From positions 2,825 to 66,824 of the forward strand of contig JBPCIX010000054.1 in NCBI GenBank assembly GCA_051005875.1: a stretch of 64,000 nucleotides of DNA, in the 5' to 3' direction. Source of the stretch: Actinomycetota bacterium (GTDB taxonomy: Bacteria; Actinomycetota; CADDZG01; JAHWKV01). The position numbers were made by a program, and so were the translations under genes. Position 1 is the stretch's first letter; each line of letters starts with the position of its first letter. The notes below the pieces were generated by a model. That model saw nothing but the letters and a program-made list of their open reading frames with translations. It did not search any database and was not told where the DNA came from. Positions 234-54,558 of the stretch are shown here, one piece after another.

Positions 234-2288
234 GTGGCGTATATGCCCGCAGAGTCCCCGATTTCGACGAATAGGCTGGCTGACGAGACCAGCCCGTATT
301 TGCTTCAGCATGCCCACAATCCGGTTGACTGGTACCCGTGGGGAGAAGAGGCGCTTGCACGGGCCCGCAGCGAGGACCGGCCGATTCTGCTTTCGGTCGG
401 TTATGCCGCCTGCCATTGGTGCCATGTGATGGAAAGGGAGTCTTTCGAGAACGAGGCTACCGCCCGCGTGATGAATGAAAGATTCGTGTGTGTGAAGGTG
501 GATCGCGAGGAGCGCCCCGACATCGACTCCATCTACATGGATGCCCTGCTGGCAATGACGGGCCGCGGCGGATGGCCCATGACGATGTTTCTTACGCCCG
601 ACGCCAAGCCCTATTTCGGGGGGACCTATTTTCCGCCCACCGAACAGCACGGCATGCCTTCCTTCGCAAGGATCCTCGATGCCGTCTGGGAGGCCTGGCA
701 GCACCGAAGGGCCGAAATTGGCGAGCAAACTGAAGCTTTGGTCGAGCAGATCCGCAGCCAAGCGGGCGCCCCGTCAAGCGAACCGCTCACTTCCTCACTC
801 ATATCCCAGGCGATTGGCCGTCTTGAGACTTCCTTCGACCCGGTCAACGGAGGTTTTGGATCGGCCCCCAAGTTCCCCCAGGCCCCGGTGCTGGAGCTTT
901 GCCTTCGAGCCGCAGCCGGCCAATTGGGACGGTCCAGGCAAATGGCTGAGGTCACCCTGCGCAAGATGGCTCTGGGCGGAATTTACGACCACCTGGCGGG
1001 CGGCTTTGCAAGGTACACGGTGGACAATCGCTGGCTCGTTCCTCACTTCGAGAAAATGCTCTACGACAACGCTCAACTAAGCAGGGTGTACACACGGGCC
1101 TGGCAGCTCACGGGGGATCCGTTATTCAAGCGGGTATCTATTGAGACCCTTGATTATTTGCTTTCCGACATGGTCTCCGGCGTTGCGCCGGGCACCGGCC
1201 CCCCGGACGCACCATTCGCCTTCGCTGCGAGCGAGGATGCGGACTCAGAGGGCAAGGAAGGCAAGTTTTACGTTTGGGACTACGACGAGTTCATCGGGGT
1301 TGCGCCGGATGGCGCCCAGTTTTACGGCGTCACCAAAGCAGGCAATTTTGAAGGCGTCAATATCCTTACGGCCACCGGCGACGACCCTCCTTTAGGGGAT
1401 CGGGCCAATCTGCTGGAGCAAAGACGGTCTCGCGTACGCCCCGGTCGCGACGACAAAGCGCTGGTCTCGTGGAACGGCCTGGCGGTTTCAGCCTTAGCGG
1501 AAGCCGGCGCTGCTTTCGGCCGGAAGGATCTGACTGAAATGGCGGCAAGGGTGTGCCGCTTCCTGTTGGACAATTCGGTTGATGAAACCGGCCGGCTGAT
1601 GCATTCCTATAAGGACGGCAGGGCCGGGGTGTTGGGCATGCTGGAAGACTACTCGTATCTGACGGAGGGCCTGCTGGCCCTTTGGGAAGTCACGTTTGAC
1701 CCCCAGTGGCTTAGCGAGTGCCGCCGCCTGGCAGAAGAAATGATTAGCCTGTTTTGGGACGAGGAGCGGGGCGGATTTTTCTCGACCGGCCGAGACCACG
1801 AGGCGCTGATCGTGCGACCTAAGGAGTTGATAGACGGCGCAACTCCTTCGTCGAACGGGGTGGCCTCACTACTGTTGTTGCGGCTTGCTGTGCTGACCGG
1901 CGACGACGCTTTTGCAAAAAAGGGAGTCGCCACCCTTAGAGCAGGTCATGTCTATATGTCTCAGGCGCCGCAAGTGGCGGGAACTCTGCTAAGCGCCCTG
2001 GATTTTTACCTATCCAAGCCCCAAGAAATTGTCGTCCTCGGAACCGGGCCCGGCGCGGATCTTTTAAAGACTGAAATTTGGCGTCGGTTTCTGCCCAACA
2101 AAGTTGTGGCCGGGGCCGAACTTGCGGACCCATCAACCGATTCACCCGCCGATTCACCCTTGCTTGCAGGCAAGACTCTAGTAGCTGGAAGAGCGACGGC
2201 TTTTGTCTGCGAGAATTACGCCTGCCAAGCCCCAACAACGGATCCGGCCCAACTTGCGGAGCAGTTGAGCGACGCAGCTATACCTTAA
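234..2288 (+). CDS. thioredoxin-domain protein (DUF255/YyaL-type, N-terminal thioredoxin fold plus alpha/alpha-toroid)
   Basis: 684-aa ORF. N-terminus has [28 protein letters not shown] and the CHWCHVM motif, which are hallmarks of the COG1331/YyaL family. Confidence 0.85.
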
Positions 2289-2539
2289 GCGCCGGTAGCG
2301 GCTGCCGGTTCTCGCTTGGGCATTGCGTCGGTTACCTCGCTGTACTCAGGAAAACGCTTGGCCTGCTTCTTCGACCAGATTTGGATACCGTCAACGCTCA
2401 GTTCGAACTTACCGCCACCCGAGGGGATAAGCACGAACGACTCGATTGCGTTTTTATAGTCCTCGAGTAACTTGGCCGTCAGACCGACGGCCTTGTCTGT
2501 GTAGTCTCAGACTACGCAGTATTCAAGTTCAATTTTCAT
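2285..2539 (-). CDS. Rdx/SelW-SelT-SelH family protein, predicted selenoprotein (CVVU redox motif; in-frame TGA at 2509..2507)
   Basis: Manual translation of the minus strand gives [10 protein letters not shown][TGA][73 protein letters not shown]. This is the beta1-CxxU-alpha1 layout with the IPSxGGxFEV..dG..iWSKK..grFP signature of the Rdx family. An AAGGG Shine-Dalgarno sequence precedes the ATG. Absent from the ORF track because of the TGA. Confidence 0.75.
2474..2492 (-). promoter_or_regulatory. candidate bacterial SECIS hairpin (GGCCGUC-GGUCU-GACGGCC)
   Basis: Perfect 7-bp stem with a 5-nt GGUCU loop. The stem starts 14 nt 3' of the in-frame UGA on the minus strand. Confidence 0.55.
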
Positions 2540-2553
2540 GACTTAACCCTTGG

Positions 2554-3282
2554 CTAGGGAGCTGGGCTCGAGGGAGCTGGGCTCGAGGGAGCTGGGCTCG
2601 AAGGAGCTGGGCTCGAAGGAGCTGGGCTCGGCTTCCGCGTGGGTTTGGGCGTCGCCTTGGTCGTCTTTTTGGCCGCGCTCGGCGACGGCGACTCCTCCGC
2701 TTTCACGACGTTGACGCTTCTGCTGATGAGCAAGCAGCCTTGCTCCGATTCTGTAACGTCACCCTTCACACCGATGGTGAAGCCTTGAATGCTGTTTGGA
2801 AATTTGCTGTTTTCCGTAACGTCGGCAGGATCGAAGGTCGTAGTGCCCGTGTACGCTACGACCAGGGTATCTCCGGCATTAAATACGCAGGCGCCGCCCG
2901 CTCCGTTGAAAGATGTAAGCCGAAGGGCTATCGAGCCGGGCGAGGAATAGTTGAACAACTCGGGTTGAGCGGTTCCGGTGGTTGCCTCAGGGCTGGCGCC
3001 GGGGCTGGCGCTGGAACCGGCCGAGGCCGAGACGGAGGCCGAGGGGCTCGGCGATGCTGACGGACTGGGTGACTGTGACGCGGCACCGCCGACCGTTGTC
3101 GCTGCAGCGCTCCCTGAAGCCTCGACCACGACACCTTCAAGCTCAAACGACGCGGGAGTAGGGCTCGGCGAGGGCGCTTGGGAAGTTTCAATGGGCGTGG
3201 GTGTTGCCACCTTAGCCCGGTCGCACGCAGCGACGGCGAACAGGAACAGCGGAAGAAACAGTATTGCAAGGCGCTTAGACAT
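2554..3282 (-). CDS. secreted lipoprotein, Ser/Pro/Ala-rich, with C-terminal (SSPAP)n repeat
   Basis: ORF 2554..3330. The preferred start is MSKRLAILFLPLFLFAVAAC at 3282, which gives a signal peptide plus lipobox (AVAAC). Composition is low-complexity S/P/A with five SSPAP repeats at the C-terminus. Confidence 0.65.
   Translation of the reverse strand: MSKRLAILFLPLFLFAVAACDRAKVATPTPIETSQAPSPSPTPASFELEGVVVEASGSAAATTVGGAASQSPSPSASPSPSASVSASAGSSASPGASPEATTGTAQPELFNYSSPGSIALRLTSFNGAGGACVFNAGDTLVVAYTGTTTFDPADVTENSKFPNSIQGFTIGVKGDVTESEQGCLLISRSVNVVKAEESPSPSAAKKTTKATPKPTRKPSPAPSSPAPSSPAPSSPAPSSPAP
2557..2631. repeat. 15-bp tandem repeat x5 (GGGAGCTGGGCTCGA) encoding (SSPAP)5
   Basis: Units at 2557, 2572, 2587, 2602 and 2617. 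Units 1-3 are identical. Unit 4 differs from them at one position (leading G to A) and unit 5 at two positions. Confidence 0.9.
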
Positions 3283-3363
3283 CGTCATCATTGTAGATCT
3301 TATCCAACTAAATCCCCAAATAACCTTCAATCAAGCTTATTTTTGCGGGCAGTGCCCTGACCA

Positions 3364-31366: not shown

Positions 31367-31387
31367 ATACATGCACATTGCATGTAT
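31367..31387. promoter_or_regulatory. perfect 9-bp inverted repeat ATACATGCA-cat-TGCATGTAT upstream of the antitoxin gene
   Basis: Seen directly in the sequence. It ends 10 nt before the vapB-like ATG at 31398 and is preceded by an ACATGT palindrome (31360..31365). Candidate antitoxin operator, or a terminator for ino1. Confidence 0.45.
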
Positions 31388-31397
31388 GATTTGAAGT

Positions 31398-31631
31398 ATG
31401 AGTAAAAGTGTCCAGATTCGTGACGTCCCCAACGATCTTCATCTCAAATTGAAAACACGGGCGGCGGGAGAAGGAAAATCACTTTCGGACTACCTGCTTG
31501 GCGAACTCGCCAAGATGGCGGCACGACCATCTATTAAGGAAGTACTCGACCGCGCGAGCCGGCGGCCGGGGCCCAAAGTGGGAACAGCCTCCATCGTCGC
31601 GGCCGTGCGCGCGGGGCGAAACGAGAACTGA
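31398..31631 (+). CDS. ribbon-helix-helix antitoxin (FitA/VapB-like)
   Basis: 77 aa. MSKSVQIRDVPNDLHLKLKTRAAGEGKSLSDYLLGELAKMA is an RHH signature. The gene overlaps the downstream PIN gene. Confidence 0.7.
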   Translation: MSKSVQIRDVPNDLHLKLKTRAAGEGKSLSDYLLGELAKMAARPSIKEVLDRASRRPGPKVGTASIVAAVRAGRNEN

Positions 31632-32041
31632 GCGGCATCGTAGTAGACGCCTCTGCCGTACTCGAAGCGTTAATCGAACCCGCGCCTCAAGCGCTGCTCG
31701 ACCGGCTGGCGGGCGAAACCGAATGGAGCGCTCCCTATCTTATCGATGTGGAATTTCTTAACTCCCTGCGCCGTCTTGTTCTTGCCGGTCTGGTCAGCGA
31801 AGAAAGGGCCGCTTACGCTCGGTCCGATTTCGCAGATTTAACAATAGAGCGGTTTCCTCACGAGCCTTTCGCCGAGCGCATCTGGGAATTGCGCCACAAC
31901 CTCAGTGCATACGACGCCGTTTATGTTGCGCTAAGTGAGAAGGTTGAAGTCCCGCTGATCACCTGCCACGCAGGCCTGGCCGAGGCCCCGGGCGTGGAAA
32001 CAACCATCGAACTCTTCGAAACGCTAGAAAAATCGCCTTGA
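31628..32041 (+). CDS. PIN-domain toxin (VapC-like); N-terminus reachable only from CTG
   Basis: The ORF track starts at the GTG at 31748. The in-frame upstream sequence encodes SGIVVDASAVLEALIEP, the PIN N-terminal strand with the catalytic Asp. No ATG, GTG or TTG is available upstream. The CTG at 31628 overlaps the antitoxin TGA (CTGA). The protein also contains SAYDAVYVALSE. Confidence 0.65.
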   Translation: MSGIVVDASAVLEALIEPAPQALLDRLAGETEWSAPYLIDVEFLNSLRRLVLAGLVSEERAAYARSDFADLTIERFPHEPFAERIWELRHNLSAYDAVYVALSEKVEVPLITCHAGLAEAPGVETTIELFETLEKSP

Positions 32042-34624: not shown

Positions 34625-36175
34625 CTAGTGGGACCAACTTTTGCGTTTCCGCATGTAATAAACGATAGAGGCCGCCAACAAACCGGCCCCGACCGCCGCT
34701 GCGGCGCGCCCGGCCAAAGTTAACGGGGTCGCACGATCATTTTCCGCGCGCGCCAAAGCTGCGCCGCCGCTCGGACCTGGCTGTAAAGTTGGAGTACTGG
34801 CGATTGGCGACTGCGAGGTTGCCAGCAGCGGACTGGCCTGGGGGGTAGAGGGCACCGGGGCCGCAGAAGGCGCCGCTGGAGGCCTTGGTGCCCGCTTCTT
34901 GCGTAAAACCGCGGCGGGTGGCGACTTTGGATCTGGAGTGGGCGTCCCTTGCCGCGACACCGACGAATCCCGGGACGCTTGTTCTGATGGGGGGACCGAG
35001 ACAGGGCTGGTCTCGGCCACACTCGAACCCCCCCCTTGCTGGTCCGCCGGCGAAACCGGGCAGGTTCCAAGCCCAATGAGGCACACGAACGATTCGCCGG
35101 CAACAGCTGGGATCGCCTGGGAGGTGGCCCCGGCGTCACCTGAACAATCCGGTCCCTGTTGATAATTAAATGAACCATCATCGTTTTGTACCGAAAGCAG
35201 AAACTCGACCGGGCCGGCGCCCGCAGGAACCCATCCGGCGGCCGCTGGATCCTCGCCCGCGGCCAAAAGCGCCTGAGTTGAGTAGGCGGTGGAATTGGTA
35301 TCACTGACCTTTGATCCCCCGCAGTAGTTTGAGGCGAAAGACTTTTGGTAGGCAAAACCTCCATCAGCGTTTTGCTGAGCGTGGAAGAACTCAAGAGCTT
35401 TGACCAAGGCCGCATCCGCGTCTATCCGGGGGTCCAGGCGCCGGGCCGCAATAAGCGCCTGGAGCGCCAAGGCGGTCGAATTCGTATCTGTTCCCCATCC
35501 CGGTGAAAACTCCCACCCGCCATCGGACTGCTGGGCGACAAGAAGATTGGAAATGGCCGGGCGCGGCGTCTGAACGTGCCGGGCCGACAATCCGAGAACG
35601 GCGAAGGCCTGGTCGAACATATTGGTAACGAAGGAATACTTCCCGGATACAGGGTCCAATTTGGTTTCCCGGTACGAGCCTGAGGCTTCGTCAAAAGTCG
35701 CCTCTATCGCCGCGATCAGGTCAGAGCCGCCGAAGCGCTTTGGGTTGTCCGATGAGGCCTCGGCTGCAACGGCTACTTGACCGGCGGAACGGGCACTGCA
35801 ATCGGAGCGGTCCGAAGCGTCACAATCGATCGACTCCACCCTTGCCTTCAAAAACTCGATCGGGTCGGATCCTCCCGGCCGGGCCACATCATGCGGATCT
35901 TCACCCCCGGCGGCAAGAGCGTAAATTCCGTCAGCAGTTCCGCCAATCGCGGAAAAGCCGGGAAAGCTCCCATCGGTGGCTTGCTGGGACTTCAACCAGG
36001 TCAAACCCCGAGCGACCGAAGACTCCGGTTCAGTTGCAACCGCCTGGGTTGCAATCGCCTGGGGCAGCGGCGGGATAAACAAGAGGACAACCCAAAACAG
36101 GACCAGGGCTATCGAGGCGGATATGACGCGGAGGGGAAACGGTATGGGCCAGGTGGGCGACAGGAAATCCTGCAA
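34625..36175 (-). CDS. secreted prenyltransferase/squalene-cyclase-repeat (alpha/alpha-toroid) protein with Pro-rich linker and C-terminal TM anchor
   Basis: Carries repeated QxxDGGF/W-type motifs: WLKSQQATDGSFPGF, LVAQQSDGGWEF, FHAQQNADGGFAYQ, LLSVQNDDGSFNYQ, plus TNSTA..Q(A)L. It has an N-terminal signal/TM segment, and the C-terminus is a hydrophobic helix followed by RKRK. Confidence 0.7.
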   Translation of the reverse strand: MQDFLSPTWPIPFPLRVISASIALVLFWVVLLFIPPLPQAIATQAVATEPESSVARGLTWLKSQQATDGSFPGFSAIGGTADGIYALAAGGEDPHDVARPGGSDPIEFLKARVESIDCDASDRSDCSARSAGQVAVAAEASSDNPKRFGGSDLIAAIEATFDEASGSYRETKLDPVSGKYSFVTNMFDQAFAVLGLSARHVQTPRPAISNLLVAQQSDGGWEFSPGWGTDTNSTALALQALIAARRLDPRIDADAALVKALEFFHAQQNADGGFAYQKSFASNYCGGSKVSDTNSTAYSTQALLAAGEDPAAAGWVPAGAGPVEFLLSVQNDDGSFNYQQGPDCSGDAGATSQAIPAVAGESFVCLIGLGTCPVSPADQQGGGSSVAETSPVSVPPSEQASRDSSVSRQGTPTPDPKSPPAAVLRKKRAPRPPAAPSAAPVPSTPQASPLLATSQSPIASTPTLQPGPSGGAALARAENDRATPLTLAGRAAAAVGAGLLAASIVYYMRKRKSWSH

Positions 36176-36199
36176 GTTCTTGCCTTTCTCGCGAAGGTA

Positions 36200-36330
36200 A
36201 GGAGCATGCGAGGCGGCGGGTATCCTGACTTGCCACCGGGGACTTGCCGATGGCTTACAGTTGCGGGACAGCGCCGGACTTTAACCGGCTTCCCCTCTTT
36301 GTATCCCAGGCATCCGGGCCTTGGGATTCC
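36200..36330 (-). promoter_or_regulatory. cobalamin (B12) riboswitch, compact form
   Basis: The minus strand reads AGAGGGGAAGCCGGTTAAAGTCCGGCGCTGTCCCGCAACTGTAAGCCATCGGCAAGTCCCCGGTGGCAAGTCAGGATACCCGCC. It contains the GGGAA..GGT..AA.TCC..GC.G.CCCGCAACTGTAA core and the B12 box AGTCAGGATACCCGCC (36230..36215). It lies 25-150 nt upstream of the TTG start at 36175. Confidence 0.8.
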
Positions 36331-36446
36331 GCTACACAAATTCTGCTATTGACCCGAGTATAGGCCCAGTGCTTGTCCCATGTCGAGTCTTTGACCGAGT
36401 CCCCTTTGCCTACCCCTTACTGCACTCTGGATGAACCCCGGCTCCT

Positions 36447-53593: not shown

Positions 53594-53921
53594 CTTCAGG
53601 CCCGCAGTGAGCAGAGCGCCCTTCCATTATTTGGTTGAATTCAGTTGAGATTTGGTCATAAGACGCCTCATCGATGCCGCGTCGCGCTACGACAACCAAA
53701 TCGATCCCAGGATTGGTTAGGCGCATGATTCTCACAACTTCCTTTATTCGACGGCGAATTCGATTTCGTTCGACCGCGCCCCCGTGTTTTCGGGACACCA
53801 CAATTCCTACCCTTGCGGGAAGCCCATCGTGCCGATCCAGGATATAAACCTGGAGGTGAGCCGACACAACGCTCCGCCCATTTTTAAAGACTCGCTGAAA
53901 GTCTGAGGTTCTTAATGCCAT
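53586..53921 (-). CDS. rnpA: ribonuclease P protein component
   Basis: 111 aa. Contains FQRVFKNGRSV and GGAVERNRIRRRIKE. Located between rpmH and yidD. Confidence 0.85.
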   Translation of the reverse strand: MALRTSDFQRVFKNGRSVVSAHLQVYILDRHDGLPARVGIVVSRKHGGAVERNRIRRRIKEVVRIMRLTNPGIDLVVVARRGIDEASYDQISTEFNQIMEGRSAHCGPEVG

Positions 53922-53947
53922 GGCCTGAAGGCCGGTGTATGGAAATC

Positions 53948-54082
53948 CTAGTGGCTGAGCCGGGTCCGGCCTTTTGCGCGGCGCCGGGCCAAAATAACTC
54001 GGCCGGCCCGTGTTCGCATTCTCACCCTAAATCCGTGAGTCTTTTTTTGGTGCCGGGTGTTGGGTTGGTAGGTACGTTTCAT
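53948..54082 (-). CDS. rpmH: 50S ribosomal protein L34 (not in ORF track, 44 aa)
   Basis: Manual translation gives [44 protein letters not shown]. Confidence 0.93.
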
Positions 54083-54558
54083 CGTCTTTTTAACTCCTAA
54101 AAAACTCGAATTGTCGATTGTGAGTCAGGCATAACCCAAGCGTAATCCGAGCGTGGACAAATTATTATTCAGGCTCGCTAAGTTTGGCTTGGAGTGATTA
54201 TATCCGCTCGTTCGCCAATGCGTTTTCGCGACTTTGCCAGGATCTTATTCATCGTTATAATCAGCCGGGCACCAAGCGCTTACCTATGAGGTAGGTGAGG
54301 CAGGCCAAACCTCACTCCCCCGTTGTCCTACCTGTGCCGTTGTTTGTTTTAGCTACCTGAAAAGGGGACTTCAATTGATTAAAGTCAGGCTTTCCACATC
54401 TGTGGACTCACCTGTGTACAACTCTCATTTCCGCAGGTCTATTGGGTTGCCGGCCTTATTTGCGTCTACTGTTAATTGCCAACTTTCCCGTTATATTTCC
54501 CACTGGTCTGTGGATAAATGTGGGGCTTTTCCCAGCCCTGCTGGTTTATGGCCTGTTA
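54083..54558. promoter_or_regulatory. rpmH-dnaA intergenic region with DnaA boxes (dnaA promoter / part of oriC)
   Basis: A perfect TGTGGATAA (the reverse complement of TTATCCACA) lies at 54509..54517. An inverted pair CTTTCCACA (54390..54398) / TGTGGACTC (54401..54409) is present. CGTGGACAA lies at 54152..54160. The surrounding DNA is AT-richer than the flanks. Confidence 0.55.

Follow-up and report, generated by a model that had tools for sequence, protein, structure and literature searches.

Bacterial SelW-like proteins with a CxxU motif (where U is selenocysteine, Sec) form an established selenoprotein family (PMC1088965, PMC1794560). With 48 genes, it outnumbered every other selenoprotein family in the Sargasso Sea data (PMC1088965), and organisms that use Sec have few Cys homologues of it (PMC1794560). 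Eukaryotic SelW/SEPW1 belongs to the same Rdx family and carries the same CxxU motif (PMC1088965). In eukaryotes, the selenocysteine insertion sequence (SECIS) is located in the 3' untranslated region as a kink-turn element (PMC1088965), in contrast to the hairpin inside the open reading frame (ORF) that is described below. Mis-annotation of selenoprotein genes is universal (PMC1088965, PMC1794560). We report here on a gene encoding such a SelW-like protein, located on the minus strand at positions 2285..2539 of contig JBPCIX010000054.1 of an Actinomycetota bacterium, positions being those of the window, that is, the whole 64-kb stretch that was analysed. The gene very probably encodes a genuine selenoprotein of the SelW-like (Rdx) type and carries a bacterial SECIS, from which we infer that the organism decodes Sec. 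Work from 2005 onwards has documented the SelW-like family together with its CxxU motif, its SECIS and the systematic mis-annotation of its genes, and the locus represents a further member, from a poorly sampled Actinomycetota lineage, rather than a new system. It opens no new question and does not make the function of the bacterial family more tractable. An earlier note on this DNA had stated that selenoproteins are uncommon in Actinomycetota; this fits the literature only in part, as Actinobacteria are listed among three phyla rich in selenoprotein families (PMC1794560).

The same note had described an unannotated 84-codon ORF on the minus strand, preceded by an AAGGG ribosome-binding site, with a stop codon falling at the second redox residue of a CxxC/CxxU motif. 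Rereading of the sequence gave exactly the same coordinates and motif, and the alignments presented below place the TGA opposite Cys. Translation of minus 2539..2285 from the ATG at 2539 yielded 84 codons, including one in-frame UGA, followed by a TAA stop codon. The UGA is codon 11 (2507..2509, minus strand) and lies in the motif C8-V-V-U11; it is predicted to encode Sec on the basis of its alignment with Cys and of the conservation of the TGA. No disruption other than this TGA was found in the ORF. The mechanical ORF list contained only a 49-residue remnant with a GTG start at 2434 (2285..2434, minus strand), and this is why the gene looked unannotated. A word-indexed database search with the Cys-substituted protein returned only three matches (P0001-P0003), all of them similarly shortened calls of 48-49 residues. 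Since TGA is the usual stop of 16 of the 53 long ORFs of the window, the genome is not recoded. The Shine-Dalgarno-like AAGGG was read directly at 2547..2551 (minus strand), 7 nt upstream of the ATG; it lends little support to the start, because it is not conserved in the orthologues L001 and L002 (JGI 3300015209, about 80% amino acid identity). The annotation should show one gene at 2539..2285 in which codon 11 bears a translation exception (Sec), instead of a 49-residue fragment or an intergenic gap.

Family membership was assessed with profile queries in which Cys was substituted for the TGA. The read-through product matched the Pfam family Rdx (PF10262) with 63.8 bits (cut-off, 22.6; E = 1.7e-17) over residues 2-70, the TGA being inside the match, and the NCBIfam model TIGR02174 (SelT/SelW/SelH) with 55.9 bits (cut-off, 34.2). 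The alignment to these two models, which had been put forward as a check on the first description, thus scored above the curated cut-off in both cases. The best-scoring NCBIfam model was NF041051 (SelTWH_Campy; 71.9 bits, E = 3.8e-20); as this score does not reach the equivalog cut-off of 88 bits, the gene lies outside that Campylobacterota equivalog. The protein shares with the bacterial SelW-like selenoproteins (PF10262, formerly PF05169; TIGR02174, CXXU_selWTH) a size of about 75-90 residues, the (I/L)EYCxxU motif, the IPSxGGxFE and FSKK..GRFPE blocks and an in-ORF stem-loop after the UGA, with a G in the apical loop. We found no essential difference from them, the window copy only adding a short Pro/Ala-rich C-terminal tail and a second hairpin, which encloses the UGA.

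Five Cys homologues of solved structure, 2p0g (Selenoprotein W-related protein), 2fa8 (Atu0228), 2obk, 2oka and 3dex (SAV_2001), were matched over residues 2-70 with E values of 6e-11 to 7e-7, and have their CxxC motif in the same place. The UGA aligned with the second Cys of YCxQC (YCRQC, YCTQC) in 2p0g, 2fa8 and 2obk, and also with the CxxC motif of full-length database homologues (P0009, P0022, P0050, P0058 and others). The solved homologues differ from the window protein by the Cys at the UGA position, a length of about 105 residues, other C-termini and the lack of a SECIS. When the 73 residues that follow the TGA were used in an exhaustive HMMER search, 109 representatives were returned, which fell into three groups: ORFs of about 60 residues beginning past the position of the TGA; full-length CxxC proteins (CVPC, CHEC, CGVC and others); and full-length CxxW proteins (P0004, P0005, P0015, P0019, P0086, P0088 and others). 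In the one CxxW entry that was checked at the DNA level (P0004, on L102, 589-825), the W proved to be a TGA codon, which indicates that the CxxW records are the same selenoprotein translated with a code in which TGA means Trp. These public entries are thus SelW-like selenoproteins recorded in a misleading way. Among the nearest relatives, Sec forms outnumbered Cys forms.

The question whether orthologues carry Cys or Sec at codon 11, raised in the earlier note, was answered by inspecting their DNA. We scanned one genome per GTDB species, using alignment A2 as the query (the 12-sequence alignment A1 being too diverse), and found 535 relatives. In the best 80 loci of these 535, the aligned codon was TGA in 80 of 80 cases, always after (I/L)EYCxx. 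These 80 loci belonged to Actinomycetota, Latescibacterota, Chloroflexota, Bacillota, Planctomycetota, Marinimicrobia, Verrucomicrobiota and Armatimonadota, and included the cultured Bacillota Desulforamulus putei, Alkaliphilus peptidifermentans and Bacillus timonensis. A TGA was similarly present in 14 further metagenome loci with at most 60% identity, and was thus kept in all 94 other relatives of which the DNA was inspected at this codon. The nearest genome representative was only 53% identical to the window protein. Among closer sequences, L001 and L002, as well as L003 (a 770-bp contig of ENA ERZ27252463), which matched the window across the region read, retain the ATG, the TGA and the hairpin located downstream of the TGA, and all three keep ATG AAA ATT GAA CTT GAA TAC TGC GTA GTC TGA. 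The TGA and the hairpin are also kept at 47-53% identity in loci from Actinomycetota metagenome-assembled genomes (MAGs; L004 of JAHWKU01, L005, L010 and L017). Conservation of both elements in actinobacterial orthologues that are only 47-60% identical argues for long-term selection on the decoding signal, and for Sec decoding having been maintained in the lineage. The gene predicts Sec decoding in an uncultured Actinomycetota lineage, to which these four MAG relatives belong together with contigs L085-L087 and L089 from soil metagenomes.

The hairpin in question, GGCCGUC-GGUCU-GACGGCC (2474..2492, minus strand), was found by folding and by its conserved register. It had been reported as a perfect hairpin 14 nt past the UGA, with a loop that shares GGUC with the loop of Escherichia coli fdhF, and both statements held on reexamination. 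It consists of a 14-nt spacer (2506..2493), a 5' arm GGCCGUC (2492..2486), a loop GGUCU (2485..2481) and a 3' arm GACGGCC (2480..2474), so that the stem has 7 perfect bp and the apical loop begins 21 nt after the UGA. It lies within the coding sequence, at codons 16-22 (K-A-V-G-L-T-A). According to PMC1088965, a bacterial SECIS is a stem-loop that follows the UGA immediately on its 3' side and whose apical loop is small and includes a G; the window hairpin presents a 7-bp stem, a GGUCU loop and a 14-nt spacer. The E. coli K-12 fdhF sequence reads UGA, 11 nt, then GGUUGCA-GGUC-UGCACC. In both cases, the hairpin is inside the ORF, 3' of the UGA, and the loop begins with GGUC within an in-frame GGU CUG (Gly-Leu). 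The minimal fdhF element starts 11 nt past the UGA, with one U bulged out and 4 nt in the loop. The window stem starts at 14 nt, and its 7 pairs are perfect and free of bulges; its loop has 5 nt and is placed one codon further downstream, and binding of this hairpin by SelB is a prediction.

The 81-nt region folded at -30.1 kcal/mol (z = -3.84), and only 1 of 200 shuffled sequences was as stable. Perfect 7-bp hairpins with loops of 3-8 nt numbered 60 in the 64-kb window, compared with about 27 in shuffles, and the chance of one starting in the 13-nt interval after a given codon was about 1.2%, or about half of this when one of the first two bases of the loop has to be G. Further evidence came from an ungapped alignment of 83 sequences (A3), in which the hairpin occurred at the same codon register in most sequences and the apical loop opened with G or AG in most of them. 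The arms showed compensatory changes (CCGUC/GACGG, CGGCC/GGCCG, CCGCC/GGCGG, CAGCC/GGCUG, CUGCC/GGCAG, CCGCA/UGCGG). When the seven pairs were counted over 82 rows, the inner five were found to be paired in 58-81 of the 82, with 16 double changes at pair 33-45 and 8 at pair 36-42. The covariation score was 0.252, as compared with 0.153 ± 0.014 in shuffles, none of 500 of which reached 0.252, and it did not exceed 0.136 when the partners were slid by 1-3 columns.

Indirect support was provided by the genes that surround the homologues in other phyla. In two Verrucomicrobiota loci (L046 and L076) the homologue adjoins the genes for tRNA-Sec, selD and selA, and in L075 it has selD-selA on one side and selB on the other. 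The tRNA-Sec gene and selB are followed by the homologue in the two Bacillus genomes L064 and L068, and in a metagenome contig (L092) the homologue adjoins a tRNA-Sec gene. In the 573 kb that were scanned (window plus fetched loci), tRNA-Sec accounted for 5 of 14 tRNAs. At these Verrucomicrobiota, Bacillus and metagenome loci, the SelW-like gene appears to be part of a small Sec gene cluster.

Several observations weigh against the interpretation of the gene as a Sec-decoding one with a SECIS. No SelA, SelB, SelD or tRNA-Sec was detected in the 64-kb window by Pfam searches on the 53 long ORFs, tblastn with the three corresponding E. coli proteins, ARAGORN or Rfam, nor was a second selenoprotein gene found there when unoccupied DNA was scanned for read-through ORFs with CxxU or UxxC. 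Rfam gave no match at the gathering score, and no SECIS match at E ≤10 on 2250-2600. RNAalifold returned no consensus structure for the 83 aligned SECIS regions, and we relied for this reason on explicit pair counting with controls and on folds of individual sequences. The two outer pairs of the stem are unpaired in most sequences, being specific to the lineage of the window, and the hairpin is shifted by about 3 nt in a Clostridia-type subset. Furthermore, the stem encodes a conserved A-V-G/S-L-A/T peptide, and its conservation could be due in part to selection on the protein.

The best surviving alternative, though we hold it to be quite unlikely, is that the UGA is read as Cys, through a mischarged tRNA-Sec, or as Trp, through near-cognate suppression, if the Sec pathway has been lost wholly or in part or if selenium is limiting. 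It would be compatible with the failure to find Sec machinery in the 64-kb window, and the hairpin and the family-wide conservation could be recent relics. It is however at odds with the fact that the TGA and the hairpin are kept in syntenic actinobacterial orthologues at 47-60% identity, and with the observation that, when the Sec trait is lost, the normal sequel is a codon change from Sec to Cys or the loss of the gene (PMC1794560).

Comparison with L001 and L002 indicated purifying selection on the gene, both before and after the TGA. The ratio of nonsynonymous to synonymous substitution rates (dN/dS) was 0.08-0.10 over codons 1-70. In codons 12-35, from the TGA to the internal start, the proportion of nonsynonymous differences (pN) was 0.07 and that of synonymous differences (pS) 0.38-0.51, and codons 36-70 were in the same regime. 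Codons 1-10 were identical, and so were all 30 of the first 30 nt (window, 2510-2539; L001, 2005-2034; L002, 226-255), to be compared with a synonymous divergence of 0.4-0.65 in the rest of the gene. This invariance suggests an additional constraint, at the nucleotide level, near the start and the UGA. Conservation set in exactly at the ATG, the 60 nt upstream being at background identity and unalignable. The constraint across the TGA and the onset of conservation at the ATG do not fit with a pseudogene or with a leader peptide followed by a truncated protein.

In the latter case, there would be two products, a 10-residue leader peptide and a 49-residue protein starting from the GTG at 2434, with the hairpins acting as regulatory or attenuator elements. 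A GTG- or TTG-started ORF of 48-49 residues does exist in the window, L001 and L002, and a second perfect hairpin does hold the UGA in its loop. Yet codons 12-35 are constrained at the protein level and match both the Rdx profile and the homologues in the PDB, a shortened protein would be deprived of strand beta-1 and of the redox motif, and neither the internal starts nor the UGA-loop hairpin are conserved across the family; we consider this possibility very improbable. Equally improbable is a pseudogene, i.e., a former CxxC Rdx gene with a nonsense mutation of TGC or TGT to TGA and a coincidental hairpin, which would account for gene callers stopping at the TGA and for the lack of Sec machinery in the window, but not for the TGA at the same codon in 94 of 94 other relatives and in the orthologues L001-L003, a dN/dS of about 0.09 that includes the codons just past the TGA, the absence of other disruptions, or the compensatory changes in a conserved hairpin. 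Even taken together, the three alternatives remain unlikely.

If the gene is a selenoprotein gene, as we conclude, its expression may be envisaged as follows. The mRNA would probably be shared with the upstream ORF, and translation would start from the ATG at 2539. By analogy with the E. coli paradigm, the hairpin GGCCGUC-GGUCU-GACGGCC, with its G/U-rich apical loop, would recruit SelB-GTP and Sec-tRNA(Sec), and Sec would be inserted at UGA codon 11 in place of termination. Judging from its sequence, the 84-residue product should share the thioredoxin-like fold seen in the solved Cys homologues and may act as a thiol/selenol oxidoreductase, with Cys8-x-x-Sec11 forming a reversible selenenylsulfide.

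The only unusual detail of the locus is the second perfect hairpin, GUAGUC-UGA-GACUAC (2501..2515, minus strand), which was found by folding and in which the UGA makes up the 3-nt loop closed by 6 bp. It is lineage-specific, being kept in L001, kept via a G-U pair in L002, and present with 5 of 6 pairs in L004. We rejected it as a feature of the family, as most relatives had only 0-4 contiguous pairs counted from the loop. This hairpin and the invariant first 30 nt could together represent an extra recoding signal that tunes how RF2 and SelB compete for a UGA lying only 10 codons after the start. As a separate proposal, the SelW-like protein and the convergently encoded DUF255 thioredoxin-domain protein could work as a dedicated redox pair in this lineage. 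Considered jointly, these two proposals are speculative, and we give them little credence.

The convergent gene (234..2288, plus strand) encodes a 684-residue Thioredox_DsbH (DUF255) thioredoxin-domain protein (PF03190, E = 9.4e-78). Its stop codon and that of the SelW-like gene overlap in the palindrome TTAA (2285-2288), which leaves no intergenic room for a terminator. On the other side lies a 258-residue ORF (2554..3330, minus strand) with a signal- or lipoprotein-like N-terminus (LFLFAVAAC) and no Pfam match. It stops 14 nt before the ATG of the SelW-like gene and, given this short gap and the common strand, the two are probably co-transcribed. In its tail (about 2557-2640), a 15-nt unit is repeated in tandem, giving several copies of PAPSS in the protein. 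A homologue of this ORF was found upstream of the gene in L001. The DsbH neighbour is present in L001-L005, and the synteny with the DUF255 gene holds in these loci only: no DsbH match was obtained at L010 or L017. The gene order in the Actinomycetota MAG loci L004 and L005 is PALP, SelW-like, DsbH, and the PALP neighbour is kept in L010 and L017.

The remainder of the window yielded a few minor observations. A CxxU-like in-frame TGA at 31392 (CMI-TGA) was rejected as a selenoprotein candidate, as the VapB-like antitoxin encoded downstream has its own ATG at 31398; the resemblance to a CxxU motif is a coincidence. The corresponding region (31371-32041, plus strand) contains this antitoxin gene (31398-31631) and then a 97-residue ORF (31748-32041), both located between the genes for inositol-1-phosphate synthase and the CCA-adding enzyme. 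A cobalamin riboswitch (RF00174, 66.9 bits; 36198-36348, minus strand) lies upstream of a 516-residue ORF (34628-36175) that gave a weak match of the squalene-hopene-cyclase C-terminal type and is followed by a 351-residue ORF without Pfam match. The window as a whole corresponds to an actinobacterial origin region, with dnaA-dnaN-recF-gyrB-gyrA, rnpA-yidD-yidC, gidB, parB, trxB-trxA, murJ, dnaB, rplI, ssb and dnaK-grpE-dnaJ. Between 46178 and 63911, the order is one typical of actinobacteria: trxB, trxA, amidase, parB, (parA), gidB, yidC, yidD, rnpA, dnaA, dnaN, recF, gyrB, gyrA, DUF3566 and tRNA-Ile, and the 520-nt gap that precedes dnaA (53921-54442) is likely the site of rpmH and oriC.

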